Shown: positions 2,321 through 51,931 of the stretch, piece after piece
Layout of the letters: the number at the start of each line of letters is the position of its first letter
How positions within the stretch are numbered: position 1 is the stretch's first letter
NCBI GenBank assembly: GCA_022709565.1
Contig: JAKLIO010000002.1
Location: 1-60,138 of the forward strand
DNA: 60,138 nucleotides
From: Patescibacteria group bacterium
GTDB taxonomy: Bacteria; Patescibacteriota; Minisyncoccia; Moranbacterales; GWC2-37-73
Direction of reading: 5' to 3'
Translations under genes and position numbers: made by a program
Notes under the pieces: model-generated
What the model was told of the DNA's origin: nothing
Databases searched by the model: none
What the model saw: the letters and a program-made list of their open reading frames with translations, nothing else

Positions 2321-3643
2321 CTATTTTTGCCGCTTTGTCAATATGAAATCTTTTCGACCCAATTTGCGATGATAACCAATTGCAAACCGATGCGCTTCGT
2401 CCATAATCCGCTTTATTAAATTTTTATCATTGAAAACTTCCTTAACCTCATTTCTTGGATCATAAATCTTAAATCTTAAATCTAATTTATTGCGTTCCCT
2501 CCCTTTCGCCACTGCTCCAATATTAACTGCTAAACCTAATTCTTCGTGTAAAAGTTTTTCTGCCATATTTAGATGCCCTACTCCGCCGTCTAAAAGAATT
2601 AGGTCGGGCATAGTCCAATTGTTTCCAAATCTTCTAGCAAGCACTTCTCGCATCATACCAACATCATCACTGCCCGAAATAGTTTTGATTTTAAATTTAC
2701 GGTATTCTTTTTTGTTTGGCTCCCCGCCTTCGAAAACCACCATCGAACCAACCGCATTCGTACCGGAGATATTGGAAATATCATAGGCCTCAATTCTCGT
2801 ATTTTGTATCTCGTATTTTGTATTTAGTATTTTAGGTTCAAAATCTTTCGAAATCAATGCGATATCATGAATGTGATTTAGTGCAAAAACTTTATTTCTC
2901 AAATCCGCGGCTTTTTCAAATTCATGCTTTTTGGCCAACGCCTGCATTTCCTTTTCAAGTTTTTTTACTAAGCTTTTCTTTTTTCCTTCCAAAATCATTC
3001 TGATGCCGTGGATATTTTTTTGATAATCTTTCTCCGAAATCGCGCCGGCATATGGTCCGGGACAAAGCCCTATCTGAAAATCCAGACAGCCCTTTTCCGT
3101 TTCTTGCCTATTTGAATGAAAAGGAAAAATTTTACGGATTATTTTCAGCGCAATTTCCATTTGCTTTTTGGAAGTATAGGGACCAAAAACAGCTTTTAGG
3201 TTACCCGCCTCGCGTCGATGAGCGGTCATCTCCGCGAGTCGAGGCGGGTAGCTTTTAGCTTTTAGATTTTTAAAATCAAGATCTGTTGCCCGAAGGATTG
3301 TTATCCTCGGGAATTTTTCTTTCGTAACGACAAAGTATGAAAATGACTTATCGTCTTTAAGATCAATATTATATTTCGGCTGATGTTTTTTGATCAGATT
3401 GCTTTCCAATATCAAAGCTTCCAAAACCGAATCGGTCTGGAAAAATTTTATGTCTGCCACTTTGGGCATCATAGCTTCAATATGGTTTCTGGTTTCCGTG
3501 CCGCGAAAATATGAAGCTACCCGATTTCTGAGATTGGTCGCTTTGCCGATATACAATATTTTTCCGGCTTCATCCCTGAAAATATAGACTCCAGGCGCTG
3601 TTGGCAATTTATTCAGTTTTTCCTTAATTTTTGACATTTCCAT
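2321..3643 (-). CDS. uvrC: Excinuclease ABC subunit C. Short form that ends right after the DEAHRFAI motif, with no (HhH)2 tail. Carries two in-frame repeat insertions.
   Basis: N-terminal GIY-YIG motif (GVYIFRDEAGKILYIGKATNLRNRVASYF), a UVR motif (KHEFEKAADLRNKVFAL), an RNase-H-like region (IEAYDISNISGTNAVGSMVVF) and DEAHRFAIGYHRK near the C-terminus. Confidence 0.9.
   Translation of the reverse strand: MEMSKIKEKLNKLPTAPGVYIFRDEAGKILYIGKATNLRNRVASYFRGTETRNHIEAMMPKVADIKFFQTDSVLEALILESNLIKKHQPKYNIDLKDDKSFSYFVVTKEKFPRITILRATDLDFKNLKAKSYPPRLAEMTAHRREAGNLKAVFGPYTSKKQMEIALKIIRKIFPFHSNRQETEKGCLDFQIGLCPGPYAGAISEKDYQKNIHGIRMILEGKKKSLVKKLEKEMQALAKKHEFEKAADLRNKVFALNHIHDIALISKDFEPKILNTKYEIQNTRIEAYDISNISGTNAVGSMVVFEGGEPNKKEYRKFKIKTISGSDDVGMMREVLARRFGNNWTMPDLILLDGGVGHLNMAEKLLHEELGLAVNIGAVAKGRERNKLDLRFKIYDPRNEVKEVFNDKNLIKRIMDEAHRFAIGYHRKLGRKDFILTKRQK
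2797..2835. repeat. ATAC-periodic AT-rich repeat, in frame inside uvrC (peptide [12 protein letters not shown])
   Basis: The sequence tcgtattttgtatctcgtattttgtatttagtatt belongs to the same word family as 10207-10250, 11651-11700 and 53613-53650. Confidence 0.7.
3204..3248. mobile_element. 45-nt GC-rich palindromic element, copy inside uvrC (peptide PPRLAEMTAHRREAG)
   Basis: cccgcctcgcgtcgatgagcggtcatctccgcgagtcgaggcggg differs at 3 positions from the copy at 51864-51908. It is read in a different frame from the uvrA and uvrB copies. Confidence 0.85.
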
Positions 3644-3717
3644 ATAAACATGCTACATTTTTACTTTAGAAATTACAAGTTCACAAGTTATTTAAAAATA
3701 AAATTGGAGGAAGAATT

Positions 3718-4062
3718 ATGATCATCACGTTACCGCCTTTTTCGCAAAGAGGCACGAATGTAGTAATGAGGATAAAATTAATGATTGAGTTGGCAAATTT
3801 TTTTAAGGAACTAACAACTCAAATCGAATTTTCTGACAAGTTTTCCGATATTATTTTGTTCCATATTACTGGCAATGACAATGAAATAGACATCTGGAAT
3901 TTTGTTAAGAAGAAGAAAAATTTAATTGAAAAAAAATTAAACGGCCAGCCAGCGAAGGTTATTGCCGGCAAAAAAAGAATGATATTAAACCACCAGCAGG
4001 AGGAATACAATGGTAGCAGAAAGGAAAATACCAACACATCCTTATATAAGACCGTGTGTTGA
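3718..4062 (+). CDS. Hypothetical protein (114 aa)
   Basis: ORF with a strong SD (attGGAGGaagaattATG). It overlaps the start of the next ORF. No recognisable motif. Confidence 0.55.
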   Translation: MIITLPPFSQRGTNVVMRIKLMIELANFFKELTTQIEFSDKFSDIILFHITGNDNEIDIWNFVKKKKNLIEKKLNGQPAKVIAGKKRMILNHQQEEYNGSRKENTNTSLYKTVC

Positions 4063-4417
4063 GAACGGAAATGGAGAAGTTTTTGATTATTTATCCAAAG
4101 TTTTTGGTCGGCATAATTTGTATTATTGCAAATCGACTGCAAGCGAAAATTGCATGTTTATTTGCCCTAATAAAAATCTGCCATTTACAGTTACTGAGCC
4201 TCTCGAATTTTTTCTTGATTATGAAGGAGAAAAAAGAGATTTGCTGATGCCCGGAGATTATCGTATTGTTCAGCACGTAGCTGAAACAAATTTCCATTTA
4301 CTCATTCTGGAAAAATTTCAGGGTGAAAAATCATTGAGTGTTCTGGCGTGCTTGGCTGGTTGGAGAAATGGTTTTATGGTCGACTGGCGCGGAATTCAGC
4401 CAATCAAAAAATCCTAA
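4010..4417 (+). CDS. Hypothetical protein (135 aa)
   Basis: ORF with a strong SD (cAGGAGGaatacaATG), followed by a clean terminator at 4446-4483. No recognisable motif. Confidence 0.6.
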   Translation: MVAERKIPTHPYIRPCVENGNGEVFDYLSKVFGRHNLYYCKSTASENCMFICPNKNLPFTVTEPLEFFLDYEGEKRDLLMPGDYRIVQHVAETNFHLLILEKFQGEKSLSVLACLAGWRNGFMVDWRGIQPIKKS

Positions 4418-4445
4418 ACATAGGATGCATAATTTTCATGCATTT

Positions 4446-4483
4446 AGCGCAGCGTTTATCTAAACGCGCTGCGCTTTTTTTAT
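4446..4483 (+). terminator. Rho-independent terminator of the 3718-4417 pair
   Basis: Stem AGCGCAGCG / CGCTGCGCT followed by a T run. Confidence 0.7.
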
Positions 4484-4582
4484 TTTCAAATTATTCAAAA
4501 AATCCTTGGATACAATTTGAGACGACCGCATTTAAGTGTATCCACGAAGAATTAACTGCTGAATTTTTGTATATAATACATC

Positions 4583-7500
4583 CTACTTTCTGCCTAATAC
4601 ATCTTTTAGATATTTCGCTGTGTAGCTTTCTTTATGATATTTGATAATTTCTTCCGGCGGACCGGTCACAATGATGCGGCCGCCATTGTCTCCGCCTTCC
4701 GGGCCCATGTCAATGATCCAATCGGCGGTTTTAATCACATCCATATTGTGCTCAATCACGACCACCGTGTTGCCTGCGTCTACCAACCTATTCAGAACGT
4801 TCAATAATTTTTTAATATCGTCAAAATGCAGTCCAGTGGTCGGCTCGTCCAGAATATACAGCGTGTTACCGGTCGCCAATCTGGAAAGCTCGCTGGCCAG
4901 TTTTATTCTTTGCGCTTCTCCGCCGGACAGCGTGGTTGCGCTTTGTCCAAGTTCAATATAGCCCAAACCGACTTCTTCCAGCACTGCCAAAGGACCGTGA
5001 ATTTTTGGAAAAGCTTCAAAAAATTTCACGCCTTCAGAAACAGTCATTTTTAAAACATCATAAATATTTTTGCCTTTATATTTGACTTGCAAGGTTTCAC
5101 TGTTATATCTTTTTCCATTGCAAACATCGCAGGGCAGATAGACATCCGGCATAAATTGCATTTCAATTTTCAAAAATCCCTCCCCGTTGCAATTGTCGCA
5201 GCGTCCGCCAGGAATATTGAAAGAAAATCTGCCGGGACCATAGCCGCGCAGCTTGGCGTCTTTGGTCTGAGCAAACAATTCACGAATCGAAGTAAAAAAT
5301 CCTGTGTAAGTTGCCGGATTTGAGCGCGGTGTGCGCCCGATCGGCGATTGGTCAATCATAATTACCTTATCAATATTTTCAATCCCGACAATTTCTTTAT
5401 GCCGGCCTGGCGCATCCAAACTGCGGTGCAATTTGTTAGCCAGCGCTTTGTATAATGTTTCTTCAACCAGTGTTGATTTGCCGCTACCGGAAACTCCGGT
5501 CACACAGATAAAAACTTTGAGCGGAAATTCGGCCACAATATTTTTCAGATTATGTTCGCCCGCGCCGCGCACCACGATTCTTTTTTTCTTATTGGCATCG
5601 CGCCGAAACTTGGGAATTTCGATTTCCATTTCGCCGCGCAAATATTTTCCGGTTAAAGATTTTGGATTATTGATCACTTCGGTAGGCAATCCTTGCGCCA
5701 CGATTTCTCCGCCATGTTTGCCCGCTCCCGGTCCGATGTCCACCAGCCAATCCGCGCTGCGCATCATTTCTTCGTCATGTTCAATGACGATTAAGGTGTT
5801 GCCGATTTTTTGCAATTGGCGCAGCGCTTCCATAAGTTTTGAATTATCACGCGCGTGCAAGCCTATTGAAGGTTCGTCTAAAATATATAGGACGCCTACC
5901 AGCTGCGAACCGATCTGCGAAGCCAGGCGGATCCGCTGCGATTCTCCGCCGGACAATGAATAGGCAGCGCGTTGCAATGTCAAATATTCTAAGCCGACAT
6001 TATTGAGAAATTTTAAGCGCGCCACAATTTCTTTGAGAATCCGGCCGGCAATCATTTCCTCGCGCTGCGTCAATTGCAGTTTTTCAAAAAAATTCAAACA
6101 TTCGCGAACACTCAGCGTCGAAGCTTCGTAAATATTTTTCCCGCCGACCGTCACCAATAGCGCTTCTTTTTTGTATCTTGTTCCTTTGCAAGTCGAGCAC
6201 GGCTTTTGCGACATATATTTTTCAATGCCTTCGCGCACCGCATCTGATTCTGTTTTGAAATATCTTTCCTGCAAAAAACCGACCACACCCTGCCAAGTCA
6301 TATAAAATTTCCAATTGGTGCCGGTTTTGGTTTTGACGATGATGGGAATCTCCTCCCCGCCTCGCGTCGACGAGCGGTCGTTTCCGCGAGTCGAGACGGG
6401 CGCCTCATCTTCAGTTGCCATACTTTCATGCTCAGCTGTTCCATAGAGCAGCAAATCCATTTTCTTTTTTGACAAATCTCTAAGGCGCATATTGTCAGGA
6501 ATATTAAAATATCTGGCTGCAGACAAAATCACGCCGCCATAATAATTATTTTTCTTGAAATTCCAAGGCGCCAAGCCGCCTTCCGCCAGAGTCTTATTAT
6601 TGTCCGGCATGACTCTTTCAATATCTATTTCTTTTTTGAATCCCAATCCTTCACAGCCGCTGCAAGCACCAAACGGAGAATTAAAGGAAAATAAACGCGG
6701 TTCCAAATCGGGAAATTCAATATCGTGTATGGAACAAGACAATTTCTGATTAAAAATTTGAACCCCCTCTTTGCTTCTCCCCCTTTTCAAGGGGGAGATT
6801 GAGTGGGGGTCTTTCAGACTCACTATTTTCACTAGTCCCTCCGACATCTTCAGTGCTTTTTCCACGCCTTCAAAAATTCGGCTTAAATTTTCATCGCTAA
6901 TCTTTACTCTGTCGATTACCAAATCAATGCTATGTTTTTTGTAGCGTTCCAATTTAACGTCCTTAAAATCTTCCAATCTGCATAATTTACCGTCCACAAT
7001 CGCTTCGGAGAATCCGCGCTTCCACATATCATCCAAGAGCGCCAGATATTCCCCTTTTCTTTCGCGCACAATCGGTGAAAGAATTTCGATCTGAACACTG
7101 CGCGAAGCGCTTTCGTTTTTCCCTCTCTCCCCTTTAGGGAGAGAGTCGGTGAGAGGGTGATTAATTTCCAAAATCCGACTTACAATTTCATCTGTTGAAA
7201 GCTTGGAAATTTCCCGGCCGCAAACGGGACAATGCGGAATTCCGATCTTAGCATACAAAAGACGCAAATAGTCATGAATTTCCGTCACGGTTCCGACGGT
7301 TGAACGCGGATTGTGCGACGCCGCTTTTTGATCAATTGAAATTGCTGGCGAAAGTCCTTCAATATAATCAACATCCGGCTTATCCATCTGCCCTAAGAAT
7401 TGCCGCGCATAGCTCGACAAACTCTCCAAATATCTCCGTTGCCCCTCGGCAAAAATGGTATCAAAAGCCAGCGTAGATTTTCCTGATCCGGAAATTCCCG

Positions 7501-7591
7501 TAAAAACAATAAACTTATTGCGCGGCAGAATTAAATCGACATTTTTTAGGTTATGCTCCCTTGCGCCTTTTATGATAATTTCATCAGACAT
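4583..7591 (-). CDS. uvrA: Excinuclease ABC subunit A (1002 aa), carrying three in-frame palindromic insertions
   Basis: Two ABC ATPase modules (GISGSGKST and GVSGSGKST Walker A; LSGGE signature twice), zinc modules (CPVCG, CDVCNGKRY) and full-length UvrA architecture. Confidence 0.95.
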   Translation of the reverse strand: MSDEIIIKGAREHNLKNVDLILPRNKFIVFTGISGSGKSTLAFDTIFAEGQRRYLESLSSYARQFLGQMDKPDVDYIEGLSPAISIDQKAASHNPRSTVGTVTEIHDYLRLLYAKIGIPHCPVCGREISKLSTDEIVSRILEINHPLTDSLPKGERGKNESASRSVQIEILSPIVRERKGEYLALLDDMWKRGFSEAIVDGKLCRLEDFKDVKLERYKKHSIDLVIDRVKISDENLSRIFEGVEKALKMSEGLVKIVSLKDPHSISPLKRGRSKEGVQIFNQKLSCSIHDIEFPDLEPRLFSFNSPFGACSGCEGLGFKKEIDIERVMPDNNKTLAEGGLAPWNFKKNNYYGGVILSAARYFNIPDNMRLRDLSKKKMDLLLYGTAEHESMATEDEAPVSTRGNDRSSTRGGEEIPIIVKTKTGTNWKFYMTWQGVVGFLQERYFKTESDAVREGIEKYMSQKPCSTCKGTRYKKEALLVTVGGKNIYEASTLSVRECLNFFEKLQLTQREEMIAGRILKEIVARLKFLNNVGLEYLTLQRAAYSLSGGESQRIRLASQIGSQLVGVLYILDEPSIGLHARDNSKLMEALRQLQKIGNTLIVIEHDEEMMRSADWLVDIGPGAGKHGGEIVAQGLPTEVINNPKSLTGKYLRGEMEIEIPKFRRDANKKKRIVVRGAGEHNLKNIVAEFPLKVFICVTGVSGSGKSTLVEETLYKALANKLHRSLDAPGRHKEIVGIENIDKVIMIDQSPIGRTPRSNPATYTGFFTSIRELFAQTKDAKLRGYGPGRFSFNIPGGRCDNCNGEGFLKIEMQFMPDVYLPCDVCNGKRYNSETLQVKYKGKNIYDVLKMTVSEGVKFFEAFPKIHGPLAVLEEVGLGYIELGQSATTLSGGEAQRIKLASELSRLATGNTLYILDEPTTGLHFDDIKKLLNVLNRLVDAGNTVVVIEHNMDVIKTADWIIDMGPEGGDNGGRIIVTGPPEEIIKYHKESYTAKYLKDVLGRK
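6356..6400. mobile_element. 45-nt GC-rich palindromic element, copy inside uvrA (peptide [15 protein letters not shown])
   Basis: cccgcctcgcgtcgacgagcggtcgtttccgcgagtcgagacggg has 1 mismatch to the copy at 51864-51908. Confidence 0.9.
6763..6811. repeat. C/G-run hairpin element inside uvrA (peptide SISPLKRGRS)
   Basis: Inner perfect hairpin TCTCCCCC-ttttcaa-GGGGGAGA, flanked by CCCCCTC ... GAGTGGGGG. Same design as 7121-7157. Confidence 0.7.
7121..7157. repeat. C/G-run hairpin element inside uvrA (peptide SLPKGERG)
   Basis: CTCTCTCCC-cttta-GGGAGAGAG forms a perfect 9-bp stem, followed by a second GAGAGGG arm. Same design as 6763-6811. Confidence 0.7.
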
Positions 7592-7779
7592 ATTTTTTAA
7601 TTGCTTGCCCCGAAAGTATTCTTTTTATATATTTGTACATTTGTAAAAGATTTGTATTTTTGTAGGGATGCCAAAAACTTCCCCAAAAAGGGTACTTCAT
7701 ATACTACTACGTTCTATTCTTTTTTAGATTTCCCACGAAGGAAATCTAATTTATAATACAGGAAATTCTATAAAAAGCA

Positions 7780-7813
7780 ATAAAAAAAGACCTAGCACTT
7801 GCGCCAAGTCTTT
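7780..7813 (-). terminator. Terminator downstream of the 7835-8974 gene
   Basis: Minus-strand stem AAGACTTGGC / GCTAGGTCTT followed by TTTTTTTATT. Confidence 0.6.
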
Positions 7814-7834
7814 TTGTTCTAATTCTAAGAATTT

Positions 7835-8974
7835 TTAATTTCCGCAATTAGCTTCTGCTGAGGCTCCAGTTGTCGTTCCTTCCCCAAATCCCGGTGCTGG
7901 GGCAGTTGTAGAAAGAGTCTGCGAGCATTCTTTGGGCTGAGTATTAAATCCGGAGCAAACCAATTTAAGCAAGCTGGCTGAATCTCTTGCCGCGCCAACT
8001 TTTGTGCCATTGATAACCAGGCTTGGTGATCCTTGCACGCCGTATTTTAATACAGCTTCTTTGTCCACATCAAATGGTGGGTATGTTCCATTGCTCCATT
8101 TGCTTTTGTCAGCCAAGTTGGCTTTAACACTAAATTGTTTATCGGTCGCGGAAACACAGATGTTTACTTGCGCAACATTAACTCCGGCGGTTTTCATGCA
8201 AGCCGACTCGGTGCCCTCGCCTTTTTTCAGGAAACATTCCAGATAAGCATTAAGCTTGGTTGGTTGAGTTTTCTGAATGCAATAATCGCGCAAATTCTCA
8301 TTCACTTCTTTTTCTCCATGCATCGCATAATCAACAAACTTCAGATTGAATTTTATTTTGTTGCCCAAAAGTTTAACTACCGGCAAAATGCCTTTTTCAA
8401 TCTGCGTTCCGTATGGGCAGTAACTCATAACAAACAAATCAACTTCGGGGATGTCCATTTTCTGTTCCGGCTCTGTTTTTTCAGTCACGGCGGGCTGTTT
8501 TGCTTCTTCTTTTTTAGCATCCAGCTCGATAACCTGTTGGGTAAGCCTTTTACCATCGCGAGTCACATAAAAAGGAACTTTCTGCGGAGAACCCGCTCCC
8601 TCTGCGCTGATTTCCAAATTCACCTTGTAGAGAACTCCTTCTTTCGTGACCTCCTTTATTTCAGCTTTCACGCCAGCTGGAGCATTTTCTTTGATAAAAT
8701 TTTGGACTTTTTCTTTAATAACGTCTTGTCCGACATCCACTTTTTCTGTCCAATACTTTTTTAGCGCTAGTCCTCCCACAATCACAACAACTAAAATTAT
8801 TGCCGCCACAATCATCTTTTTATTCTTGCTCCAAACTGCGCAGCATTTTTCACCGCACTGACAATTCTTCCCGCACATTTTTTTCAGCGCTGCAACCGGA
8901 GAAACTTTTTCTTCAGTTTGCGCTTCTTTCACTTCCTCTGCTTTTTCTTCTATTGGTTTGTTTTCATTTTCCAT
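7835..8974 (-). CDS. Membrane-anchored thioredoxin-fold (DsbA-like) protein
   Basis: 379 aa. The N-terminus has a Cys-rich segment followed by a transmembrane helix (IVAAIILVVVIVGGLAL). The C-terminal domain carries FVMSYCPYG plus further conserved Cys residues, typical of secreted thiol-oxidoreductase folds. The family assignment is tentative. Confidence 0.55.
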   Translation of the reverse strand: MENENKPIEEKAEEVKEAQTEEKVSPVAALKKMCGKNCQCGEKCCAVWSKNKKMIVAAIILVVVIVGGLALKKYWTEKVDVGQDVIKEKVQNFIKENAPAGVKAEIKEVTKEGVLYKVNLEISAEGAGSPQKVPFYVTRDGKRLTQQVIELDAKKEEAKQPAVTEKTEPEQKMDIPEVDLFVMSYCPYGTQIEKGILPVVKLLGNKIKFNLKFVDYAMHGEKEVNENLRDYCIQKTQPTKLNAYLECFLKKGEGTESACMKTAGVNVAQVNICVSATDKQFSVKANLADKSKWSNGTYPPFDVDKEAVLKYGVQGSPSLVINGTKVGAARDSASLLKLVCSGFNTQPKECSQTLSTTAPAPGFGEGTTTGASAEANCGN

Positions 8975-9172
8975 AAAATTAATTTTTCCCTTATTTTCTT
9001 CTCCTGACCAAGGAGAAGGTGGTCTGTAATCAGACCGGATGAGGTTAATAAAAAATTACAAATTAAAAAGCTTTTTCAGCCTTTGTCTATTATATTATAT
9101 ACTCCAAAAACACGCAAGGAAGCTTGTACTTTTGCTTTTTCAGTAAAATTAATTTCCACTTTCTTCTTCTGC

Positions 9173-9278
9173 AAAATTCAAAATTATGTTTTGAGGTGGC
9201 TAGCGAGTGCGACGGCACGAGCTCGGAGCATTTTTTCAGTAGAAAAAATGCGTGCACCGAAAAACATAATTTTGAATT
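9173..9278. repeat. 106-nt compound palindrome: an 18-bp outer stem enclosing two GC hairpins
   Basis: aattcaaaattatgtttt (9175-9192) pairs perfectly with aaaacataattttgaatt (9261-9278). The inner hairpins are GTGC-gacg-GCAC and GCATTTTTT-cagtag-AAAAAATGC. Confidence 0.6.
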
Positions 9279-9348
9279 ATTTTTTAAAAAAAGAAAAACA
9301 CAAAATTTATAGTGTGCCGGAGAATGCAAAATACTAGATACTAAAATA

Positions 9349-11547
9349 CTACTTTATCTGCAATTTCCTAAGCTGCGAAATTTCATCGCGAATAATTGCG
9401 GCGCGTTCAAATTGAAGCGCGCGCGAAGCGTCTTTCATCTCCCTTTCCTTTTGTTTGATGTATCCGGCAATATCCTCTAGCGACTCCAATCTAGTGAAGT
9501 CCGGTGCCGGCATCGGATTAATTTCATGATCCACAATGGATTTAATATTTTTCTTGATGGTTGTCGGTGTTATGCGATGTTTTTGATTATACTGCGCCTG
9601 TATTTTCCGCCTCCTGTTTGTTTCATCGATTGCGCGCCGCATCGAACCGGTTATGCTGTCGGCATACAAAATCACGCGCCCGCTTACATTTCTGGCCGCC
9701 CGTCCGATTGTTTGAATAAGTGAAGTTTCGCTGCGGAGAAATCCTTCTTTGTCTGCGTCCAAAACAGCCACCAAGGAAACTTCCGGCAGGTCCAAACCTT
9801 CGCGCAAAAGATTGACGCCCACCAAAACATCGAACTGCCCGCGCCGAAGTCCTTCCAAAATGCGGATGCGATCCAAAGTTTCCACGTCCGAATGCACATA
9901 TTCGCATTTTATTTTGTGCTCTTTCAAAAAATCCGACAGGTCTTCCGCCATTTTTTTTGTCAGTGTCGTGATCAAAACCCTCCCGCCTGCAACGCTATGC
10001 TGCATTTCATTAGTACTTTCTTTTGTTTGTTTCTTAGAGCCAACAACTTCATTATTTTTATTCAGAAGCGTAGCATTGCGGGCAGGTTCCTTTCTTTCAA
10101 TAACTTTTTCTATTTCACTTAAAACATCTTTTACTTGCCCCTTGGCTGACTTAACAACCAGCTCCGGATCCAGCAATCCCGTTGGACGAATGATTTGCTC
10201 CACGATATTGTATTTCGTATCTCGTATTTTGTATTTCGTATTTTTTGGTTTATTTATAATTTGCGATTTATAATTTGTTTGTTGTTTGTTGTTTGTATCT
10301 TGTGATTTGTCGTATTCATACGGTCCTGGCGTCGCCGAAGTAAAAATCAGCTGCTGAATGTGCTTTTCAAATTCCGCAAATTTGAGCGGGCGATTGTCAA
10401 ACGCGCTCGGCAATCTGAATCCATTCTCTACCAATGATTCTTTACGCGCTCGGTCACCATTGTACATCGCATTTAATTGCGGCACAGTCACGTGAGACTC
10501 ATCAATCACCAACAAAAAATCTCTTCCCCCGCTTCGCGTCGAGGAGCGGTCGTTTCCGCGAGTCGAGGCGAGAAAATAATCCATGAGAGTATAGGGCATT
10601 TCGCCGCTTTTCCGTTCGGTCAAATAGCGGGAATAGTTTTCAATCCCGTTGCAATAGCCGATTTCGCGCATCATTTCCAGATCCTGCTTCGTCCGACGCC
10701 CTAACCTTTCCGCTTCCAGCAATTTATTTTTCTTTTTTAACTCGGCGACCCTTTCTCGCAGCTCTTTCTCTATCTTATCCAACGCTTCTTGCATGACCGG
10801 CTCCGGCACCACGAAATGCTTGGCCGGATAGATCAAAGTTTTTTCGAGATTGCCCAGATTTTCACCTGTCAAAAAATCATATTCCTGAATGCGATCTACC
10901 TTTCCATTTTTCATTTCGATGCGCGTCACCACTTCCCGCCCGGTCGGCATTATTTCAAAAGTGTCACCAGTCACCCGGAATTTCCCCCGACTCAACAGAT
11001 CGCTTCTTTGAAATTGCAATTCAAGAAGTTCTTTCATTTTTTCTTCTCGTTTGAATTCATCGCCCAATGCAATTTCAAAACTGATATCGCGGTAATATTC
11101 CGGCGAACCCAAACCGTAGATACAGGAAACTGACGCTACAATAATAACATCGCTGCGCGAAAGCAAGGCTGAAGTGGCCGCATGGCGTAGCCGATCAATT
11201 TCATCATTAATTTGTGCTTCCTTCTCTATATATGTATCCGATGCGGCCAAGTAGGCTTCCGGCTGATAGTAATCGTAATAGGAAACAAAATATTCCACGG
11301 CATTCTTGGGAAAAAAGGTTCTCAGTTCCTGAACCAATTGCGCTGCTAAAGTTTTGTTGGGTGCGATAACGAGCGTGGGTTTTTGCACTTTTTGAATTAC
11401 GTTGGCAATCGTGAATGTTTTGCCGGATCCGGTCACACCCAAAAGCGTCTGAAATTTTTGCCCCCTTTTTATGCCTTCAACCAACTTCTCAATCGCCTGT
11501 GGTTGATCCCCTGCCGGTTTGAATTTACTGCTTAATTTAAATTTCAT
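9349..11547 (-). CDS. uvrB: Excinuclease ABC subunit B (732 aa), carrying three in-frame insertions
   Basis: Helicase motif I (GVTGSGKTF), DESH box ([11 protein letters not shown]), motifs V and VI ([27 protein letters not shown]...QTIGRAARN) and a C-terminal UVR motif ([16 protein letters not shown]). Confidence 0.95.
9982..10086. repeat. 105-nt insertion with imperfect terminal inverted repeats, inside uvrB
   Basis: The arms CCCGCCTGCAACGCTATGC (9982-10000) and GCGTAGCATTGCGGGCAGG (10068-10086) are complementary at 15 of 19 positions. They encode an extra segment just before the conserved [13 protein letters not shown]. Confidence 0.5.
10207..10315. repeat. ATAC-periodic, low-complexity AT-rich repeat in frame inside uvrB (peptide [12 protein letters not shown] plus a Q/N/K-rich tract)
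   Basis: attgtatttcgtatctcgtattttgtatttcgta followed by ttgtttgttgtttgttgtttg. Same word family as 2797-2835 and 53613-53650. Confidence 0.65.
10528..10572. mobile_element. 45-nt GC-rich palindromic element, copy inside uvrB (peptide [15 protein letters not shown])
   Basis: cccgcttcgcgtcgaggagcggtcgtttccgcgagtcgaggcgag has 3 mismatches to the copy at 51864-51908. Same orientation and frame as the uvrA copy. Confidence 0.9.
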
Positions 11548-11572
11548 TGCTATACTTTATAGAATTAGGTTG

Positions 11573-11610
11573 GCTTGCCCCGCACCGAGCTTAGCTCTGG
11601 TGCTGGGGTC
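11573..11610. repeat. Hairpin of the GCTTGCCCCGCACC family, immediately upstream of the uvrB start
   Basis: CCCCGCACC (11578-11586) pairs with GGTGCTGGGG (11599-11608). The motif gcttgccccg also occurs at 7606 (upstream of uvrA) and at 12036. Confidence 0.55.
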
Positions 11611-11650
11611 GCCACTTGGCTTAAATTTTGAGTTTAGTTCAAATTTCATA

Positions 11651-11700
11651 ATTCGTATTTTGTATTTAGTATTCATACGAGATACCAAAGACTAGATACT
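11651..11700. repeat. Intergenic copy of the ATAC-periodic repeat family
   Basis: attcgtattttgtatttagtattcatacgagataccaaagactagatact uses the same words that are found in frame in uvrB, uvrC and tsaD. Confidence 0.6.
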
Positions 11701-11757
11701 ATATGTTACAATTCTATCTTAAATTTGTCCATTAATACAACTAAAAACTAATACCTA

Positions 11758-11786
11758 TTGACATAATTTATAAAGTTTTATATACT
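11758..11786 (+). promoter_or_regulatory. Sigma-70-like promoter with no downstream ORF; drives the candidate ncRNA
   Basis: TTGACA (11758-11763), a 17-nt spacer, then TATACT (11781-11786). Confidence 0.55.
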
Positions 11787-11792
11787 GCTCTC

Positions 11793-12030
11793 AACGCTTA
11801 GCCTCTAATGAGGCACAAAAATGTGGGCACCACAATGCTCACGGCTGGCGGCAGTCATCAGATTTTGAGGCTATAGAAAAGAGTAGCGGACAATAATCCA
11901 ATACTATTTTTCCAAACATGAGCTCAAAGAGAAGGACGGCCACGACAACCCTTGGTATGGCAGTGACAATGTTTAGGCATTGTTCACTGCCATAACCTCT
12001 CCTCTTGCAACGCTCAAGAGGTTTTTTATT
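11793..12030 (+). ncRNA. Candidate structured non-coding RNA of about 240 nt, family unknown
   Basis: Bounded by the promoter at 11758-11786 and the terminator CCTCTTG-caacgct-CAAGAGG plus a T run (12001-12027). Internal hairpins are GCCTC-taat-GAGGC and GGCAGTGACAATG...CATTGTTCACTGCC. The longest sense ORF is about 20 aa. Confidence 0.35.
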
Positions 12031-12035
12031 TTTAA

Positions 12036-12171
12036 GCTTGCCCCGCACCAATTTGGCACTTTTTATTATTTTCAGCCAATTTAATAAATTTATTTTATGT
12101 TTAAAATAATTTGATATAAAAATTCAATATTTCTTTTTGCGCCTATGGCGTAGTGTCAATTTGGTGCGGGG
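12036..12171. repeat. Long-range inverted repeat of the CCCCGCAC family, ending at the rpsF promoter
   Basis: ccccgcaccaatttg (12041-12055) and caatttggtgcgggg (12157-12171) are complementary at 14 of 15 positions. Confidence 0.55.
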
Positions 12172-12200
12172 TTGCCAAATTCCAAATTGCCTGCTATACT
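12172..12200 (+). promoter_or_regulatory. Promoter of the rpsF-ssb-rpsR operon
   Basis: GGTGCGGGG precedes TTGCCA (12172-12177), a 17-nt spacer and TATACT (12195-12200). Confidence 0.5.
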
Positions 12201-12271
12201 CTTTATACAACTTAGAAAGTCCTACTCCAACTCGCCTTTTTAGCTTAATAAAGGGATAAGTTGGTAAGCTT

Positions 12272-12314
12272 CCACTAGAAGAAGGGATTTTCTTGATTAG
12301 TGGAATTTTTTATT
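12272..12314 (+). promoter_or_regulatory. Terminator-like hairpin within the rpsF leader; possible attenuator
   Basis: CCACTAGAAGAA...TTCTTGATTAGTGG followed by AATTTTTTATT, about 80 nt upstream of the rpsF ATG. Confidence 0.35.
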
Positions 12315-12395
12315 GTTCAACTAATGAGTTCACGAGTTCACGAGTTTGAAAAAACGCGTTAGCCCGTTAACCCATTAATAAATAATAATACGTAT

Positions 12396-12917
12396 ATGCA
12401 ATACGAACTGTTCTATCTCGTAGGTGAACGCCAGGAAGCCAATCTGGAAGCGATCAAGGAAAATGTGAAATCTATTCTGGTTTCGCACCAGGCCAAATTG
12501 CTTGAACCGGAACTTTCTGAAAAAAGAAAGCTTTCCTATGAAATCAAGCACCAGAAAAAAGGAGTCTATGTGACTCGCCGTTTTGAATTGCCGGAAGTCG
12601 ATGAAGTTGCCGACAAAAAAGAATCCTTTTTTGAGGAAATGACCAAAAAATTAAACTTAACCAATGAAGTTCTCCGATTTATGATTGTTAAGACTGATGA
12701 TTTGCCCGAATTGGATTCGAAGGAAAAAAGAAAAGCGCGTGAAATGGCAGCTCAAAACCAATCTTCGCAAAGAACACAGCGCTCAGCTGAAAAACAACCA
12801 GCCTATCGCCAGCCAAAAAGACAGGAACCGCCAAAACAAAAACAAGATAACCAGCCGATAACAAAAGAGGAAACAAAAGATATCGATAAGCAACTTGATA
12901 AATTGTTAGATATATAA
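12396..12917 (+). CDS. rpsF: 30S ribosomal protein S6 with a long basic/acidic C-terminal extension
   Basis: The N-terminus MQYELFYLV...KLSYEIKHQKKGVYV matches the S6 pattern. The rpsF-ssb-rpsR order is conserved. Confidence 0.85.
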   Translation: MQYELFYLVGERQEANLEAIKENVKSILVSHQAKLLEPELSEKRKLSYEIKHQKKGVYVTRRFELPEVDEVADKKESFFEEMTKKLNLTNEVLRFMIVKTDDLPELDSKEKRKAREMAAQNQSSQRTQRSAEKQPAYRQPKRQEPPKQKQDNQPITKEETKDIDKQLDKLLDI

Positions 12918-36265: not shown

Positions 36266-36447
36266 ACAATTAATACATTGTTTTTAAATTTTTATTCGCT
36301 ATTTTCCCTTAAAATAAGAAAAAGACGGGCAAATCACCCATCTCTTATTCGCATATATCAATTATAGCACTTTTTGAGATAAAAATCAATAGCTACTGTT
36401 TCTTTGCATTTTGTATTTCCTAAAAGCTAGAAGCTAGCAGCTATAAG

Positions 36448-36705
36448 CTACCCCATGTTCCATGCTTTGGCGACAGTTTGGACAATGCGGGAAGATGTCA
36501 CTCCGGAAGTTTGGCTTATTTCAGGAGTCACTTTTTTAATTTCACTTTTATCTATATTATTTTTTCTCAGCAGTTCATTGATTTTAGGCAGCAGCTGCTC
36601 ACTCAAAGAATACTCGCCAAGCCACTCCGAACTATCAACGACTTTATTGCCGTTTTTTAAAGTTAATCTTATATCGTTACCATTTAAAAATATTTGTAGA
36701 ATCAT
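36448..36705 (-). CDS. Small protein with weak resemblance to the TsaB N-terminal region
   Basis: 85 aa from the internal Met. LSEQLLPKINELLRKNNIDKSEIKKV...TSGVTSSRIVQTVAKAW loosely parallels the TsaB pattern (LLP.i..LL....l....dl..iav..GPGSFTGLRIG...AKGL). Confidence 0.35.
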   Translation of the reverse strand: MILQIFLNGNDIRLTLKNGNKVVDSSEWLGEYSLSEQLLPKINELLRKNNIDKSEIKKVTPEISQTSGVTSSRIVQTVAKAWNMG

Positions 36706-36816
36706 AATGTAAATTTCTAATTTATAATTTTTAATTTCTAAACAATTTCCAATGAACAAATTTCAAAATTCAAAAATTTAAGCATTGTTTGAAAATTAGA
36801 AATTGAAAATTGAAAA

Positions 36817-37611
36817 TTATTTTTGGACGTTAGTCCAATTAATATTCCACGGATCTGTTTTTCTGCCTGGCGCAATGTCTTTGTGTCCTAAAATATATTT
36901 TATAGAATATCTGTTTTTAAGCGTGACGATCAAACTATTAAGTGCGCTATATTGCTCGCTGGTAAACTTTCCATCTTCAGTATTCATCATTTCAATGCCG
37001 ATGGAAAACGCGTTCACACCGGTTCTGCCATCCGGAACTTTGCTCTCTCCCGCATGATAGGCGATATTTTTGTCCGCGACCAGCTGATATATTTTTCCTT
37101 CCCGATCAATCAGATAGTGCGTCGCTACTCCGTATTGTTTGTACTCATTAAGCAATCCGCTGACACTGAATGGCTCACTGCCCAAGGCATCATAAGAAGA
37201 ATGCACAATAATCGTATCAATTTTTCGGCCGGAAGATTTTTCAAATCCCCAAGACACAAATCTTTCGATAATTTTCGCAGTGTTTTTTATTTCCGACTGC
37301 TCGTCGTTTGTCTCCGTATCTTCTTTTTCCTGATCACTATTCACTGCATCTTGTTCGCTGTCTGCTGCTTGTTGTTCCTTGTCTGCTGGATTTTGTATGC
37401 TGTCTACTTTCTGTTGACTGCTGTATTCTGCCTGCTGGCTGTTGTCTACTGTTTCTTGTTCATTGTTCACTGATCCCTGTTCGCTGTTAACAATACTAAC
37501 GGTTTTTTTCTCAGAAAAAAAAGCACAGCCGGAAAAAACCGCCACAAACAAAACAATAAAACTAATAATAATTATTTTCTTCTTATCCATGATGTAACTA
37601 TTGTAACTCAC
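36817..37611 (-). CDS. N-acetylmuramoyl-L-alanine amidase (Amidase_2/PGRP fold), lipoprotein
   Basis: Lipobox FSGC, a low-complexity Q/E/D linker, then IDTIIVHSSYD...THYLIDREGKIYQLV...AYHAG...FSIGIEMMN...LGHKDIAPGRKTDPW. Confidence 0.8.
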   Translation of the reverse strand: MSYNSYIMDKKKIIIISFIVLFVAVFSGCAFFSEKKTVSIVNSEQGSVNNEQETVDNSQQAEYSSQQKVDSIQNPADKEQQAADSEQDAVNSDQEKEDTETNDEQSEIKNTAKIIERFVSWGFEKSSGRKIDTIIVHSSYDALGSEPFSVSGLLNEYKQYGVATHYLIDREGKIYQLVADKNIAYHAGESKVPDGRTGVNAFSIGIEMMNTEDGKFTSEQYSALNSLIVTLKNRYSIKYILGHKDIAPGRKTDPWNINWTNVQK

Positions 37612-43776: not shown

Positions 43777-44042
43777 AAAAATGCTTTATTCAAGCCATAT
43801 CAAATTCTTCGACAAATGTAGCCCTGCGCTATATTAGCCAATATAAGCCATTTATTTTTCCGTCCCAAAATTTGATTTTAGTGATTTTTGTCAAAAAATT
43901 GGCCGAAAAATTTCAGAAAATCGCAAAATAAAAAAAGTCCTTCGACTTTTTCGGGTAGAAATCTCCGGACAGATGCAAAACTGGGTATGAAATACTATTT
44001 TGCTTTATTTAAGCCTTTTCAAATTCTGAGGCAAATGTAGCC
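43777..44042 (+). repeat. Non-coding repeat of about 266 bp, copy 1
   Basis: Aligns along its whole length with 50322-50587, including a 61-nt identical run (43892-43952). An internal unit of about 45 nt ending in caaatgtagcc lies at both ends, with a third partial unit at 44043-44090. Confidence 0.85.
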
Positions 44043-44248
44043 TTGCCTAGAAGGCCTTATTCAAGCCACGCTGCTCAAATGAATTTCTGGCTGGTTTTAG
44101 CAAAAAATGCTTTTCTCAATATATAAGCAGAAAAAGCTTTGACTAATGCCTGAAAGTGTGCTAATCTTGTAATGTTAAACTTATTTTAGAAAAATAGTCG
44201 AGCTTCGTAAAATATTCAATTTTACAAATCTAACAATTACAAAAAACT

Positions 44249-45022: not shown

Positions 45023-45134
45023 GGGGGAATCTCACGCGCTCGCTTTCGCTCGCTTTTCAAACCCCTCGGTTTGAATAATTCCGCCACGGGAAAACCTAGG
45101 TTTTCCCGACCCCTTTCCTCGTTCGATTTCTCCC
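45023..45134 (-). repeat. tRNA-linked conserved element, copy 1, downstream of tRNA-Gly(UCC). Its distal end repeats GATTCCCCCT from the tRNA T arm.
   Basis: Shares the core GGAAAGGGGTCGGGAAAACCTAGGTTTTCCCG..GG.GGAA.TATT.AAACCG...GGTTT.AAAAGCGA with 51357-51477 and 59718-59800. A 33-nt run is identical to copy 2. Confidence 0.8.
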
Positions 45135-45181
45135 ACCCAAAAAATAAAAACTCTCCTTCTGGGAGAGTTTTTATTTTTTTG

Positions 45182-45258: not shown

Positions 45259-45930
45259 TTAAATTTGATCTAATGAACTTTCTATCCAACCCATAATTCT
45301 ACGATGCAATTTTACTCCAAAATTAGAATTGCCCTTGCAAACAGCAGAAATGTGAGCAGTTCCGAACGGCAATTTTTTTCTATTTTTAGTAGCTTTATTT
45401 TTTCTCAAATCTACCTGTGTCTTTCTGAAATTTTCGACTGATAATTTTGTGACTTTACGCCAATATGATTCGCACTTTTTCACATCACAATCTGGATACA
45501 CATGAATCATAACAGTTAAATTTTCATTTTTCAACCCACAGCAATCTTTAAACCATTTAATTGCCAACTTTATTATTTTCGGATCAGAGTTTATAACTCT
45601 AACAATATCATGCGTTTTGGATCCTTCGCCCATATACAATCCGAGTCCGATCATCCATAAATCTTTTTTATTTAGCACCCCTAATTCTTCTTTAGCTTCT
45701 TTTTTTATTTGAGCTATATCCTTGACTCTTTTGTTATGCTTGATTCTGCCTGATTTCAGAGGTCCAGTTTTTATTCTTTCCCAAACCTTTTCATTTGGTT
45801 CAAAAGGAACTTCCTTGAGCCACGAACTTAATGTACTTTTGCTGATTTTTATCTGCTTCAATATCAAACCATAGGAATATCCCCTTTTTCTCAAACTCAT
45901 GGCCTTATTTTTTATATGCATATCCTTCAT
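45259..45930 (-). CDS. HTH plus LAGLIDADG-like (homing-endonuclease-like) protein
   Basis: 223 aa with an N-terminal resolvase-type HTH (LRKRGYSYGLILKQIKISKSTLSSWLK) and an LWMIGLGLYMGEGSK motif resembling LAGLIDADG. Its stop codon lies 5 nt upstream of the tRNA-Gly 5' end. Confidence 0.45.
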   Translation of the reverse strand: MKDMHIKNKAMSLRKRGYSYGLILKQIKISKSTLSSWLKEVPFEPNEKVWERIKTGPLKSGRIKHNKRVKDIAQIKKEAKEELGVLNKKDLWMIGLGLYMGEGSKTHDIVRVINSDPKIIKLAIKWFKDCCGLKNENLTVMIHVYPDCDVKKCESYWRKVTKLSVENFRKTQVDLRKNKATKNRKKLPFGTAHISAVCKGNSNFGVKLHRRIMGWIESSLDQI

Positions 45931-48469: not shown

Positions 48470-48600
48470 TAGAAATGACAAATTTCAAATTTCCAATGAC
48501 AAATCAATTTCAAAATCCAAAGTTCAAATTTTTGACATTTAGTCATTTGGATTTGATTAGAAATTCGTCATTTGTCATTTGAAATTACAAAAAATACTTA
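48470..48600. repeat. AT-rich imperfect palindrome of the CAAATGAC / TTCCAATGAC word family
   Basis: gaaatgacaaatttcaaatttccaatgacaaatcaatttcaaaatccaaag faces tttgacatttagtcatttggatttgattagaaattcgtcatttgtcatttgaaatt. Related words occur at 36745-36790 and inside tsaD (53295-53325 and 53555-53610). Confidence 0.6.
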
Positions 48601-51523: not shown

Positions 51524-51598
51524 TGGTACCGCTACGGGGAATCGAACCCCGGTTTACAGGATGAAAACCTGCTGTCCTAACCACTAGACGATAGCGGC
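51524..51598 (-). tRNA. tRNA-Glu (anticodon UUC), CCA encoded
   Basis: Hand-folded cloverleaf: acceptor GCCGCTA/TAGCGGT, anticodon stem GCAGG/CCTGT with loop TTTTCAT, T arm CGGGG-TTCGATT-CCCCG, 3' ACCA. Confidence 0.88.
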
Positions 51599-51606
51599 AA
51601 ATTATT

Positions 51607-51852
51607 CTATTTTAACATTTCTTTTATTTTCTTTCTTCCAGAGGAAGATTTCCAATATTTTTCAGCTTCCCTGGCAAGTTTTATGTGAATACATTTCTCA
51701 ATTATTTGCCAACTAAAATTTCCGAAGTTCTTTGTTGTTTTTACTTCTCCATGCGAATGCTCTTTTATCCTCCTTTCTAAATTATCAGAAAAACCGACGT
51801 AAGTTTTTGTTTTATTTTCATTAATCAGCAAATATACATAATAATATTGCAT
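51607..51852 (-). CDS. GIY-YIG nuclease-family small protein
   Basis: YYVYLLINENKTKTYVGFSDNLERRIKEHSHG...LAREAEKYWK matches the GIY-YIG/URI pattern. Its ATG abuts a tRNA-Glu 5' fragment and its stop lies 8 nt upstream of the intact tRNA-Glu. Confidence 0.8.
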   Translation of the reverse strand: MQYYYVYLLINENKTKTYVGFSDNLERRIKEHSHGEVKTTKNFGNFSWQIIEKCIHIKLAREAEKYWKSSSGRKKIKEMLK

Positions 51853-51931
51853 AACCTGCTGTCCCCGCCTCGCGTCGACGAGCGGTCGTTTCCGCGAGTC
51901 GAGGCGGGCTAACCACTAGACGATAGCGGCA
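51853..51931 (-). pseudogene. Duplicated 5' half of tRNA-Glu (nt 1-33), interrupted by the 45-nt palindromic element
   Basis: 51853-51863 plus 51909-51931 are identical to 51566-51599. A 45-nt insert lies between them. Confidence 0.85.
51864..51908. mobile_element. 45-nt GC-rich palindromic element, reference copy with base-exact boundaries
   Basis: cccgcctcgcgtcgacgagcggtcgtttccgcgagtcgaggcggg has terminal 9-bp inverted repeats CCCGCCTCG/CGAGGCGGG, G/C at 34 of 45 positions, and no stop codon in any of the six frames. Confidence 0.9.

Follow-up and report, generated by a model that had tools for sequence, protein, structure and literature searches.

How does one and the same 45-nucleotide (nt) palindrome come to lie, in frame, within all three excinuclease genes of a bacterium, and once more within a tRNA sequence of the same contig? 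The question is raised by a stretch of 60,138 nt from a Patescibacteria group bacterium (contig JAKLIO010000002.1, the whole of which is called the window in what follows), where an original prediction, made from the letters of the DNA, had noticed the palindrome in uvrC, uvrA, uvrB and at a tRNA site, and had likened it to the Rickettsia palindromic elements (RPEs). The element, here named E, is a new family of in-frame palindromic selfish repeats, none of which has been described for this phylum in the literature searched. With a probability that we put at roughly 0.7, E is a selfish, non-coding, GC-rich hairpin element, comparable to the RPEs and to the GC clusters of yeast mitochondria, which spreads as DNA in Candidatus Moranbacteria (candidate phyla radiation, CPR/Patescibacteria) and is kept where a disordered loop is tolerated.

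The window contains four near-identical imperfect palindromes of 45 nt, all in the same orientation on the plus strand (Table 1), and a repeat search of the window returned one four-member family, at 3202-3249, 6354-6401, 10526-10573 and 51862-51909. Relative to the copy at 51864-51908, the uvrC, uvrA and uvrB copies carry 3, 1 and 3 substitutions, respectively, and a 44-nt pattern with up to three mismatches is expected to give 0.00 matches by chance (100 shuffles); the four copies, their coordinates, these substitution counts, the length of 15 codons and the peptides given earlier all hold on re-reading. The term palindrome is accurate for the inverted-repeat ends, a perfect 9-bp terminal inverted repeat (CCCGCCTCG/CGAGGCGGG) with CCCGCC at the start, and has to be softened for the element as a whole, which is imperfect, since within the 9-bp termini lies a core that is partly self-complementary, with a possible stem of 3–4 bp and another of 5 bp (GACGA-NNNN-TCGTC). 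The consensus folds with –27 to –28 kcal/mol as RNA (either strand) and –16 kcal/mol as DNA, has a G+C content of about 71% (vs 33–46% for the window) and is free of stop codons in all six frames. An element of 15 codons with six stop-free frames therefore never truncates the gene in which it inserts. A known RNA family was rejected, as Rfam, searched at permissive E-value thresholds over copy 1 and the tRNA/GIY-YIG locus described below, returned nothing relevant; a CRISPR (clustered regularly interspaced short palindromic repeats) repeat was also rejected, there being no arrays and each locus carrying either one copy or copies scattered among different genes.

The identity of the host genes is supported by matches of UvrA and UvrB to solved structures (E-values from 0 to 1e-240), and in the alignment with solved UvrB the 15 residues of E form an exact gap directly before the strand that carries the DESH box, in keeping with the earlier remark that the uvrB insertion lies just ahead of this box. 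In the alignment with solved UvrA, the E residues fall in an unaligned stretch that separates two matched blocks. Evidence on the origin of the insertions comes from a syntenic relative (locus L137) with the order uvrB, a 379-aa gene, uvrA and uvrC and with 96% (UvrB) and 95% (UvrA) identity to the window. Here exactly 45 nt fewer are found in uvrB (gattatttc|ggaagagat) and in uvrA (gatgaggcc|caagaagtt), while in uvrC an unrelated heptamer-repeat sequence of equal length occupies the linker where the window has E, and no E copy is present in the 12.7 kb of this locus. The uvrA copy is common to a sequence of about 92% nucleotide identity (L096) and the same uvrA site is also filled in L002; the uvrB copy at the window site is missing from UvrB of L005 and L018, and only 10 of the 120 closest UvrB homologues carry any insert there. 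The exact gaps with respect to L137 and to solved UvrB bear out the proposal that the 15-aa segments are lineage-specific insertions and show that they are not ancestral. From these alignments, the three uvr copies are recent, separate and exact 15-codon insertions without target duplication, and their concentration within 7.4 kb is a local burst in a clustered uvrC-uvrA-uvrB locus. The plus strand of copy 1 carries the motif CCCGCCTCGCG..., and its surroundings in uvrC are (TAGCTTT)n heptamer repeats.

Two further observations concern the same genes. Small purine/pyrimidine palindromes in uvrA, at 6776-6798 and 7121-7157 (TCTCCCCCTT/AAGGGGGAGA and CTCTCTCCC/GGGAGAGAG), coincide with UvrA segments missing in L137 and in solved UvrA and may be additional mini-insertions. 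In L137, a second UvrA-like gene lies a few kb downstream of uvrC (11301-12712).

The copies in the window belong to a widespread family. A 21-nt core pattern (GAGCGGTCNNNTCCGCGAGTCGAG) was used to scan species-representative bacterial and archaeal contigs, metagenome contigs and viral contigs, and it returned 59 loci in the one-genome-per-species contigs, from about 30 metagenome-assembled genomes (MAGs) assigned nearly all to Candidatus Moranbacteria/Moraniibacteriota or Parcubacteria, and 72 loci in metagenome contigs. Altogether 136 copies of E were collected, which grouping by flanks reduces to about 71 independent sites; a census of copies had been suggested as a check, and these scans add 132 copies from about 30 Moranbacteria genomes and from metagenomes to those of the window. 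A phage-borne element was rejected, as the core pattern has no match in the IMG/VR viral contigs and the nine matches of the 16-nt left arm in that collection are chance matches in GC-rich contigs, with no palindrome. A profile search of the 942 kb of locus DNA added only about 20 divergent copies, including nested ones and copies of 42 nt with a 3-nt deletion in the loop. Extra copies near an ascertained copy occur at about 1 per 40 kb and about 2 copies are present per MAG genome-wide; the 60 kb of the window hold four, of which three fall in a stretch of 7.4 kb. A query of the E peptide, made as a 45-aa tandem, against a database of 5.8 billion proteins gave one candidate and no match, and full-text literature searches turned up no report of elements of this kind from CPR bacteria, an absence of evidence that applies only to the literature searched.

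About 52 of the sites (~73%) lie in long open reading frames (ORFs), which encode about 35 unrelated protein families. The hosts comprise UvrA, UvrB, UvrC, RecG, PriA, RecJ, Ogt, DNA polymerase III delta' (HolB), an XerC-like recombinase, TatD and a NUDIX protein, ATP synthase alpha and gamma (AtpA/G) and FtsH, PheT, Trp/Tyr-tRNA synthetase, CCA-adding enzyme, TsaE and Pth, together with rubrerythrin, radical-SAM proteins, glycosyl hydrolases and transferases, a P-type ATPase and further proteins.

Although the six frames are all open, their use is extremely unequal, with 36, 3, 4, 2, 3 and 4 of the 52 genic sites, respectively (chi-square P = 8e-21). The favoured frame gives the peptide PASTRG[D/N/G/E]DRSSTRGG (PASTRGxDRSSTRGG below), rich in Gly, Ser, Thr, Pro, Asp and Arg and of low net charge, whereas the rarely used frames are strongly basic. 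Orientation is skewed as well, 43:9 in genes vs 7:9 in tRNA fragments (Fisher P = 0.004). Target preference was rejected as the source of the frame bias, because a flank-derived weight matrix, even though the phase-0 sites tilt it towards phase 0, predicts only 45% of insertions in the favoured phase vs 84% observed. The frame bias thus argues that ribosomes read E and that selection filters the peptide. Changes in the favoured frame (17 synonymous:31 non-synonymous observed vs 23:49 possible) show no synonymous excess, and the filter therefore appears to favour a harmless loop and not a specific function of the peptide.

What such a loop may look like is best seen in UvrB. The core of the 120 closest homologues has 652 aa and the UvrB of the window has 732 aa because it contains three inserts, namely E, a 30-aa segment derived from heptamer repeats and a 35-aa segment from a 105-nt inverted-repeat element (Table 1); the closest homologue (717 aa) has the 30-aa and 35-aa inserts and is without E. 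In an AlphaFold2 model built on the 120-homologue alignment (mean predicted local distance difference test (pLDDT) 71, predicted template modelling score (pTM) 0.72), the low-confidence segments are these three inserts, with pLDDT below 50 at residues 331-341 (E), 419-445 (heptamer) and 488-521 (105-nt element). E is placed between a helix (321-328) and the strand of the DESH motif (345-349), and the model shows E of UvrB in a predicted disordered loop. The 105-nt element belongs to a family, here called PARNA-type, with imperfect terminal inverted repeats (CCTGCCCGCAATGC.../...GCGTTGCAGGCGGG), which is inserted in frame as 12 to 35 aa, occurs also in UvrA of L097 and L110 and in several UvrB homologues, and has UvrB hot spots in common with E. 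Among the 120 homologues, whose core has about 250 invariant columns, the inserts of several unrelated repeat families concentrate at only three positions of UvrB (325, 401 and 442).

Insertion of E is exact at the nucleotide level. Target-site duplication is absent from all exact filled/empty pairs, that is tRNA-Glu, uvrA, uvrB and four further sites whose cured flanks align without gaps to the empty alleles of the window, and flank repeats of 2–6 nt around E copies are no commoner than chance. The flanks have a weak TTT[G/C]|[C/T] bias, which is not shared by the tRNA sites. Some sites have been used repeatedly. At UvrB positions 453 and 454, insertions lie 4 nt apart in opposite orientations (L005, L018), and at the DYF|P site, which holds the copy of the window, inserts of the E family are found in five lineages, in both orientations and two phases (45 nt in the window, 45 nt in L138, 42 nt in the opposite orientation in L140, 33 nt with a one-base shift in L139 and 21 nt in L141). 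These sequences demonstrate repeated independent insertion at the DYF|P site. The termini are retained in variants of 42, 38, 33 and 21 nt, and nested copies occur in L029, L050, L076, L112, L036 and L013. Subfamilies defined by A at position 3, T at position 3 or A at position 11 are each found at several unrelated sites, as expected from lineages of master copies.

A different type of repeat often accompanies E. Dozens of tandem arrays with a period of 7 nt and many different units are scattered over the window, several of them in frame within uvrC, uvrB and tsaD (examples in Table 1). These arrays turn over fast, the uvrC linker of L137 being made of different heptamers with no change in total length, and in other loci E often lies exactly between two heptamer units (L033, L049, L105).

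The original prediction had left it between chance, target preference and tolerance of surface loops why all three subunits of nucleotide excision repair (NER) are hit. Chance is excluded, as uvrA, uvrB and uvrC hold 8 of the ~52 independent genic sites (P = 2e-9 against an estimated ~0.65% of a 1-Mb genome) and still 6 of 49 when the three sites of the window are left out (P = 8e-7). These sites are UvrA 151, 408 and 472, UvrB 325, 453 and 454, and UvrC 134 plus a C-terminal site. Both of the other causes find support, and loop tolerance and hot spots or local spread are not fully separable for the NER hits. Because several unrelated repeat families share three UvrB positions, host tolerance is indicated, and most likely the excess reflects a few very permissive loops in large modular proteins, together with insertion hot spots; we infer that tolerance is the main cause.

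The second habitat of E is tRNA DNA. The description of copy 4 as a tRNA-site copy is right in that it lies within tRNA sequence and has to be amended in that this is not a working tRNA: E splits a duplicated 5' fragment of tRNA-Glu(UUC) (GCCGCTATCGTCTAGTGGTTAG and GACAGCAGGTT) at the junction of D-loop and D-stem. On the minus strand, the order is fragment 1-22, E, fragment 23-33, an ORF of 81 aa, 8 nt and the intact tRNA-Glu(UUC). With E removed, the 22 + 11 nt match positions 1-33 of tRNA-Glu(UUC) at 100%, and as the fragment is an exact duplicate of the tRNA, the intact gene serves as the empty site and shows a 45-nt insertion without target duplication. Overall, 16 of the 71 site groups lie in tRNA 5' sequences (Glu-UUC, Glu-CUC, Leu-GAG, Leu-UAG, Leu-CAG and Thr-CGU), always in the D-arm (positions 10-13 or 19-26) and in either orientation, which is far above chance (P = 1e-24 against ~0.3% of the genome, a fraction estimated from ~45 tRNA genes in ~1 Mb). 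The tRNAs that bear E are fragments or dead duplicates, and an intact tRNA is close by wherever the neighbourhood was examined in detail; a full-length tRNA-Glu(CUC) with E was found in L013 only, and its intact twin is 2.3 kb off.

The 81-aa ORF is a minimal nuclease gene, in which the GIY-YIG domain covers residues 3-75 and shows a weak similarity, below cut-off, to TIGR01453 (group I intron endonuclease). It is the sole recurrent neighbour of E. The order of a fragment split by E, a GIY-YIG ORF and an intact tRNA recurs in 12 of 14 distinct contexts of GIY-YIG ORFs among the loci collected, and each of the three loci found through homology of the GIY-YIG protein alone has a tRNA-Glu 5' fragment with an E-type palindrome of 38–42 nt, or with two in the case of L136. 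The GIY-YIG nuclease is a candidate for the mobilising enzyme of E. The location could equally have other reasons, such as a hot spot at the D-arm with dead fragments as safe landing sites, or the splitting of a direct repeat by which the cassette would be stabilised against deletion. In a bolder version, which we regard as a long shot, E and the minimal GIY-YIG ORFs of 81–90 aa would be the two halves of one new bacterial mobile system, in which a structure-specific nuclease is resident in a tRNA-gene cassette whose leftover 5' fragment always bears an E-type hairpin. By nicking DNA of hairpin or D-arm-like form, this nuclease would set the 45-nt hairpins in motion in trans and without target duplication, heavily transcribed or damage-induced genes (NER, recG, priA, tRNA) being the preferred sinks; if true, the chemistry of this transposition would be one that is not known from the repeats of prokaryotes. 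A scan for promoter and terminator consensus sequences around the cassette gave no more sites than shuffled sequence.

Dead tRNA-Glu copies also contain other small palindromes (L132 at 1759-1890, L003 around its E copy, L035 upstream of E), for example CGCCCTAACGGGCGACCACCCGTGAGGGTGGC in the anticodon loop or the 20-nt CCTGCCTGCCGGCAGGTAAG at position 12|13, so that hairpins of several families seem to gather in tRNA pseudo-fragments.

Taken together, these data would fit the following course of events. E would be inserted as an exact 45-bp unit, in either orientation and without target-site duplication, by DNA transposition that presumably depends on a trans-acting enzyme; its target requirement would be loose, amounting to a T-rich flank, and the D-arm DNA of tRNAs and some genic sites would stand out as marked hot spots. 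A genic copy would remain in the mRNA and be translated as a disordered loop, selection would keep mostly copies that add a harmless hydrophilic loop, in one frame and at inter-domain or loop positions, and E would then decay through substitutions and in-frame internal deletions.

Several points weigh against this reading. Neither the NER excess nor the strict link between tRNA fragment and GIY-YIG gene is predicted by a model of random insertion plus tolerance. No transposase or other mobilising enzyme was identified among the window ORFs examined (no systematic transposase search was made in the 8–14-kb loci), and E has no target motif or duplication that would indicate a known transposition chemistry. 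Translation of E is indicated indirectly, by the frame statistics, and every dataset derives from metagenome assemblies. Lastly, copies at the same site in diverged genomes differ at 0.06–0.08 per site, over the 24 element positions that are not fixed by the search pattern, vs 0.22 in 60 flanking bases and 0.18 in the loop. Pure junk would not show such conservation of an element over its flanks, unless the copies re-inserted independently at hot spots or underwent correction against others. Three causes are compatible with this pattern, namely a selected hairpin, correction among copies and hot-spot re-insertion, and as re-insertion is demonstrated at the DYF site, the conservation is not taken as proof of a host function. 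Covariation does not decide the matter: E varies mostly at positions 11, 16 and 25-27, all but the first of which line a weakly supported inner stem, and formal pair counting found mismatches and no compensatory changes in the outer stem, and 2 pairs with double changes in the inner stem (T16 with A25 in 4/5 cases), a double-change count reached in 35 of 500 shuffles. Covariation support for a selected RNA structure was accordingly rejected, being absent from the outer stem and weak in the inner one, with E too invariant for the test.

The same conservation is what makes a nucleic-acid function worth weighing. E could be a signal useful to the host and kept by selection, either in the DNA, as a cruciform or a site bound by a protein, or in the mRNA, as a hairpin of about –27 kcal/mol by which DNA-repair and other genes are co-regulated or their translation is paced; its arms are 3–4 times more conserved than the flanking coding DNA in the same-site comparisons, the variation is centred within the element, a possible compensatory pair exists and the hosts are enriched in repair genes. 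Such a signal is nevertheless hard to reconcile with a presence that varies among close relatives, L137 being without all three uvr copies, or with arbitrary positions in functionally unrelated genes, both orientations and the use of six frames. The outer stem accumulates mismatches, no Rfam family is matched, and the recurrent same-site insertion alone can make seemingly orthologous copies appear young, so that we consider a host signal quite improbable; an operator inside genes similar to an SOS box was set aside on account of the arbitrary positions, the two orientations and the absence from close relatives. The NER excess could also be causal, if insertion sought out the uvr, recG, priA and tRNA genes, for instance where heavy post-damage transcription exposes single-stranded DNA, or if a weakened or altered NER favoured the survival or movement of hairpins. 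About a third of the genic sites in repair or replication genes, 8 of 52 in uvrA, uvrB and uvrC, three recent insertions in one uvr cluster, five insertions at most 1 nt apart at the DYF site, which resemble a hot spot at the DNA level, and the highly transcribed tRNA genes as the other hot spot all speak in its favour. Yet UvrB sites also gather unrelated families (heptamer arrays and the PARNA-type element), the ~250 invariant columns in 120 UvrB sequences mean that NER is not being degraded, and the uvr genes are unclustered in other lineages; a causal role of NER is unlikely in our view.

Two other explanations concern the gene product. According to one of them, PASTRGxDRSSTRGG is a functional module, such as a tag or a site of modification or interaction, that has been spread among proteins, as the strong bias to a single frame (36 of 52 genic sites) would suggest. 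Against it, synonymous changes are no commoner than expected (17:31 vs 23:49), the central residue varies freely (N/D/G/E), the five other frames are used too, including that of uvrC in the window, the segment is modelled as disordered and the conservation is that of nucleotides and not of amino acids, and we give this explanation very little credence. The other would keep E out of the protein, by intron-like removal from the RNA or by ribosome bypass of the type of T4 gene 60 or of the yeast mitochondrial byp elements, which would account for a stable hairpin within coding sequence and for the copy within tRNA-derived sequence. Removal or bypass would put no constraint on the frame, yet frame use is extremely skewed; moreover, E and its size variants (42, 33 and 21 nt) are always multiples of three, the consensus is free of stops in every frame and an intact tRNA lies near every E-carrying tRNA sequence examined in detail, which makes this explanation scarcely credible. 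An intron of the archaeal or another type, in mRNA or tRNA, was likewise rejected, the host being a CPR bacterium with intact tRNAs nearby and a skewed use of frames.

As a selfish hairpin element, E may be set beside several known types of repeats. Classical MITEs, which are transposable elements of miniature size with inverted repeats, have target-site duplications and ends in common with identifiable insertion sequences (IS), while repetitive extragenic palindromes (REPs) are extragenic, with a 5' GTAG that is recognised by REP-associated tyrosine (RAYT) transposases. E resembles MITEs in being short, non-coding and multi-copy, with terminal inverted repeats, hairpin potential, no transposase gene of its own and, presumably, mobilisation in trans, and differs from the classical ones in its lack of target-site duplication; no IS sharing the ends of E was found, although no systematic transposase search was made. 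REPs and their composite bacterial interspersed mosaic elements (BIMEs) are likewise short multi-copy units able to form hairpins, yet E is ~73% genic, starts with CCCGCC and has no GTAG in its flanks. With regard to the palindrome-associated transposable elements (PATEs) of the IS200/IS605 type, which insert without duplication 3' of a fixed 4–5-nt target on one strand, E shows no duplication, and its flanks have a weak TTT[G/C]|[C/T] bias in which the tRNA sites take no part.

Closer parallels are found in elements that live within genes or in AT-rich genomes. RPEs are palindromic elements of ~100–150 bp, in ten families confined to Rickettsia (Alphaproteobacteria), which are inserted in frame in unrelated genes, encode a conserved peptide and presumably occupy places that the protein fold can accommodate (PMC10969869). 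E is likewise a many-copy palindromic repeat of an AT-rich small genome, in frame in unrelated genes and with a conserved peptide, but it is 45 nt long (three times shorter), GC-rich, open in six frames, hosted by Moranbacteria and provided with a second habitat in tRNA 5' fragments. The resemblance proposed earlier is thus retained for the way of working, as an in-frame palindromic repeat that adds a peptide, and not for membership, from which size and phylum set E apart; by analogy, E would work like the RPEs without being one of them. The GC clusters of yeast mitochondria lie mainly between genes and duplicate an AG target on insertion, and in GC42 substitutions fall mainly in the loops, the stems are conserved and copies merge or nest (PMC4478555). 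E is similar as a GC-rich mobile hairpin of ~42–45 nt whose host genome is AT-rich, whose variation is biased to the loop and whose copies nest or merge, and dissimilar in being bacterial, mostly intragenic, translated and free of target duplication. As to the nuclease, SegB of phage T4 is a free-standing GIY-YIG enzyme that recognises tRNA-gene sequence and drives the inheritance of its own locus (PMC2330249). The GIY-YIG gene next to E is similarly lodged among or beside tRNA genes and, unlike SegB, its ORFs of 81–90 aa would consist of the catalytic domain only, with no predicted DNA-binding domain and with an E-bearing tRNA fragment alongside.

The most noteworthy features of E are the extreme selection of one frame on a unit open in all six, the significant over-representation of NER genes among its hosts and its invariable association with tRNA 5' fragments and minimal GIY-YIG genes, and the latter two are starting points for studying how tiny hairpins, RPEs and GC clusters included, move. 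Even streamlined CPR genomes, in which intergenic space is nearly absent, harbour selfish DNA that proliferates, hidden as disordered loops in essential genes, and E accounts for much of the odd length variation of CPR proteins. The recurrent insertions in loops of UvrA, UvrB, UvrC, RecG and other proteins map where proteins tolerate insertion. E itself also marks the Moranbacteria lineage, and gene callers and alignment pipelines should be wary of it.

Table 1. Positions of E copies, host genes and other repeats or genes of interest in the window.
Feature	Position	Strand	Size	Remarks
E copy 1	3204..3248			Inside uvrC; read as PPRLAEMTAHRREAG, in a frame that differs from the uvrA and uvrB copies
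E copy 2	6356..6400			Inside uvrA; UvrA residues ~398-412
E copy 3	10528..10572			Inside uvrB; UvrB residues 326-340
E copy 4	51864..51908			Splits duplicated tRNA-Glu(UUC) 5' fragment between tRNA positions 22 and 23
uvrC	2321..3643	-	440 aa	Matches GIY-YIG and RNase H-like endonuclease domains; hosts copy 1
uvrA	4583..7591	-	1002 aa	Solved-structure match; hosts copy 2 and other small lineage-specific inserts
uvrB	9349..11547	-	732 aa	Solved-structure match; hosts copy 3 and two further in-frame inserts
105-nt element	9982..10086	-	105 nt	Imperfect 19-nt terminal inverted repeats; 35 aa (PARNA...SVAGG) in UvrB
Heptamer-repeat-derived UvrB insert	10210..10303	-	30 aa	DTNNKQQ...KYKIRDTKY
tRNA-Glu 5' fragment, positions 1-22	51909..51930	-		GCCGCTATCGTCTAGTGGTTAG
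tRNA-Glu 5' fragment, positions 23-33	51853..51863	-		GACAGCAGGTT; abuts ATG of GIY-YIG ORF
GIY-YIG ORF	51607..51852	-	81 aa	Catalytic domain alone; Pfam PF01541, E = 1.9e-13
Intact tRNA-Glu(UUC)	51524..51598	-		Downstream of cassette, 265 nt from split fragment
Period-7 arrays (examples)	2795-2833, 3249-3270, 10210-10303, 36420-36818, 48479-48581, 53296-53648
Conserved element	45030-45135	-	~100 nt
Conserved element	51375-51478	-	~100 nt
Conserved element	59706-59805	+	~100 nt
ORF upstream of tRNA-Gly(UCC)	45259-45930	-	223 aa	No Pfam/NCBIfam match
Direct repeat	43777-44064 and 50322-50609		288 nt	85% identity, 6.5 kb apart

Other features of the window are grouped around its tRNA genes. The conserved element of ~100 nt listed in Table 1 lies directly downstream of tRNA-Gly(UCC) and of tRNA-Glu(UUC) and between tRNA-Lys and tRNA-Arg, has two conserved hairpins with a few compensatory changes and no Rfam match, and is followed at tRNA-Glu by a duplicate of the tRNA 3' end (~51355-51371); it may be a small RNA or a second mobile element that targets tRNAs. 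The 223-aa ORF immediately upstream of tRNA-Gly(UCC) mirrors the placement of the GIY-YIG ORF at tRNA-Glu, and a LAGLIDADG-like motif recognised by eye (GLGLYMGEGSK) suggests a possible second gene of the homing-endonuclease-like kind beside a tRNA. Around position 52000, close beside the tRNA-Glu/GIY-YIG/E locus and a gene of the sigma-70 family (52059-52811), the sign of the GC skew reverses and the genes, until then on the minus strand, continue on the plus strand; this point may be a replication origin or terminus. Finally, the two copies of the 288-nt direct repeat each lie slightly more than 1 kb from a tRNA gene, on the far (downstream) side of the tRNA.

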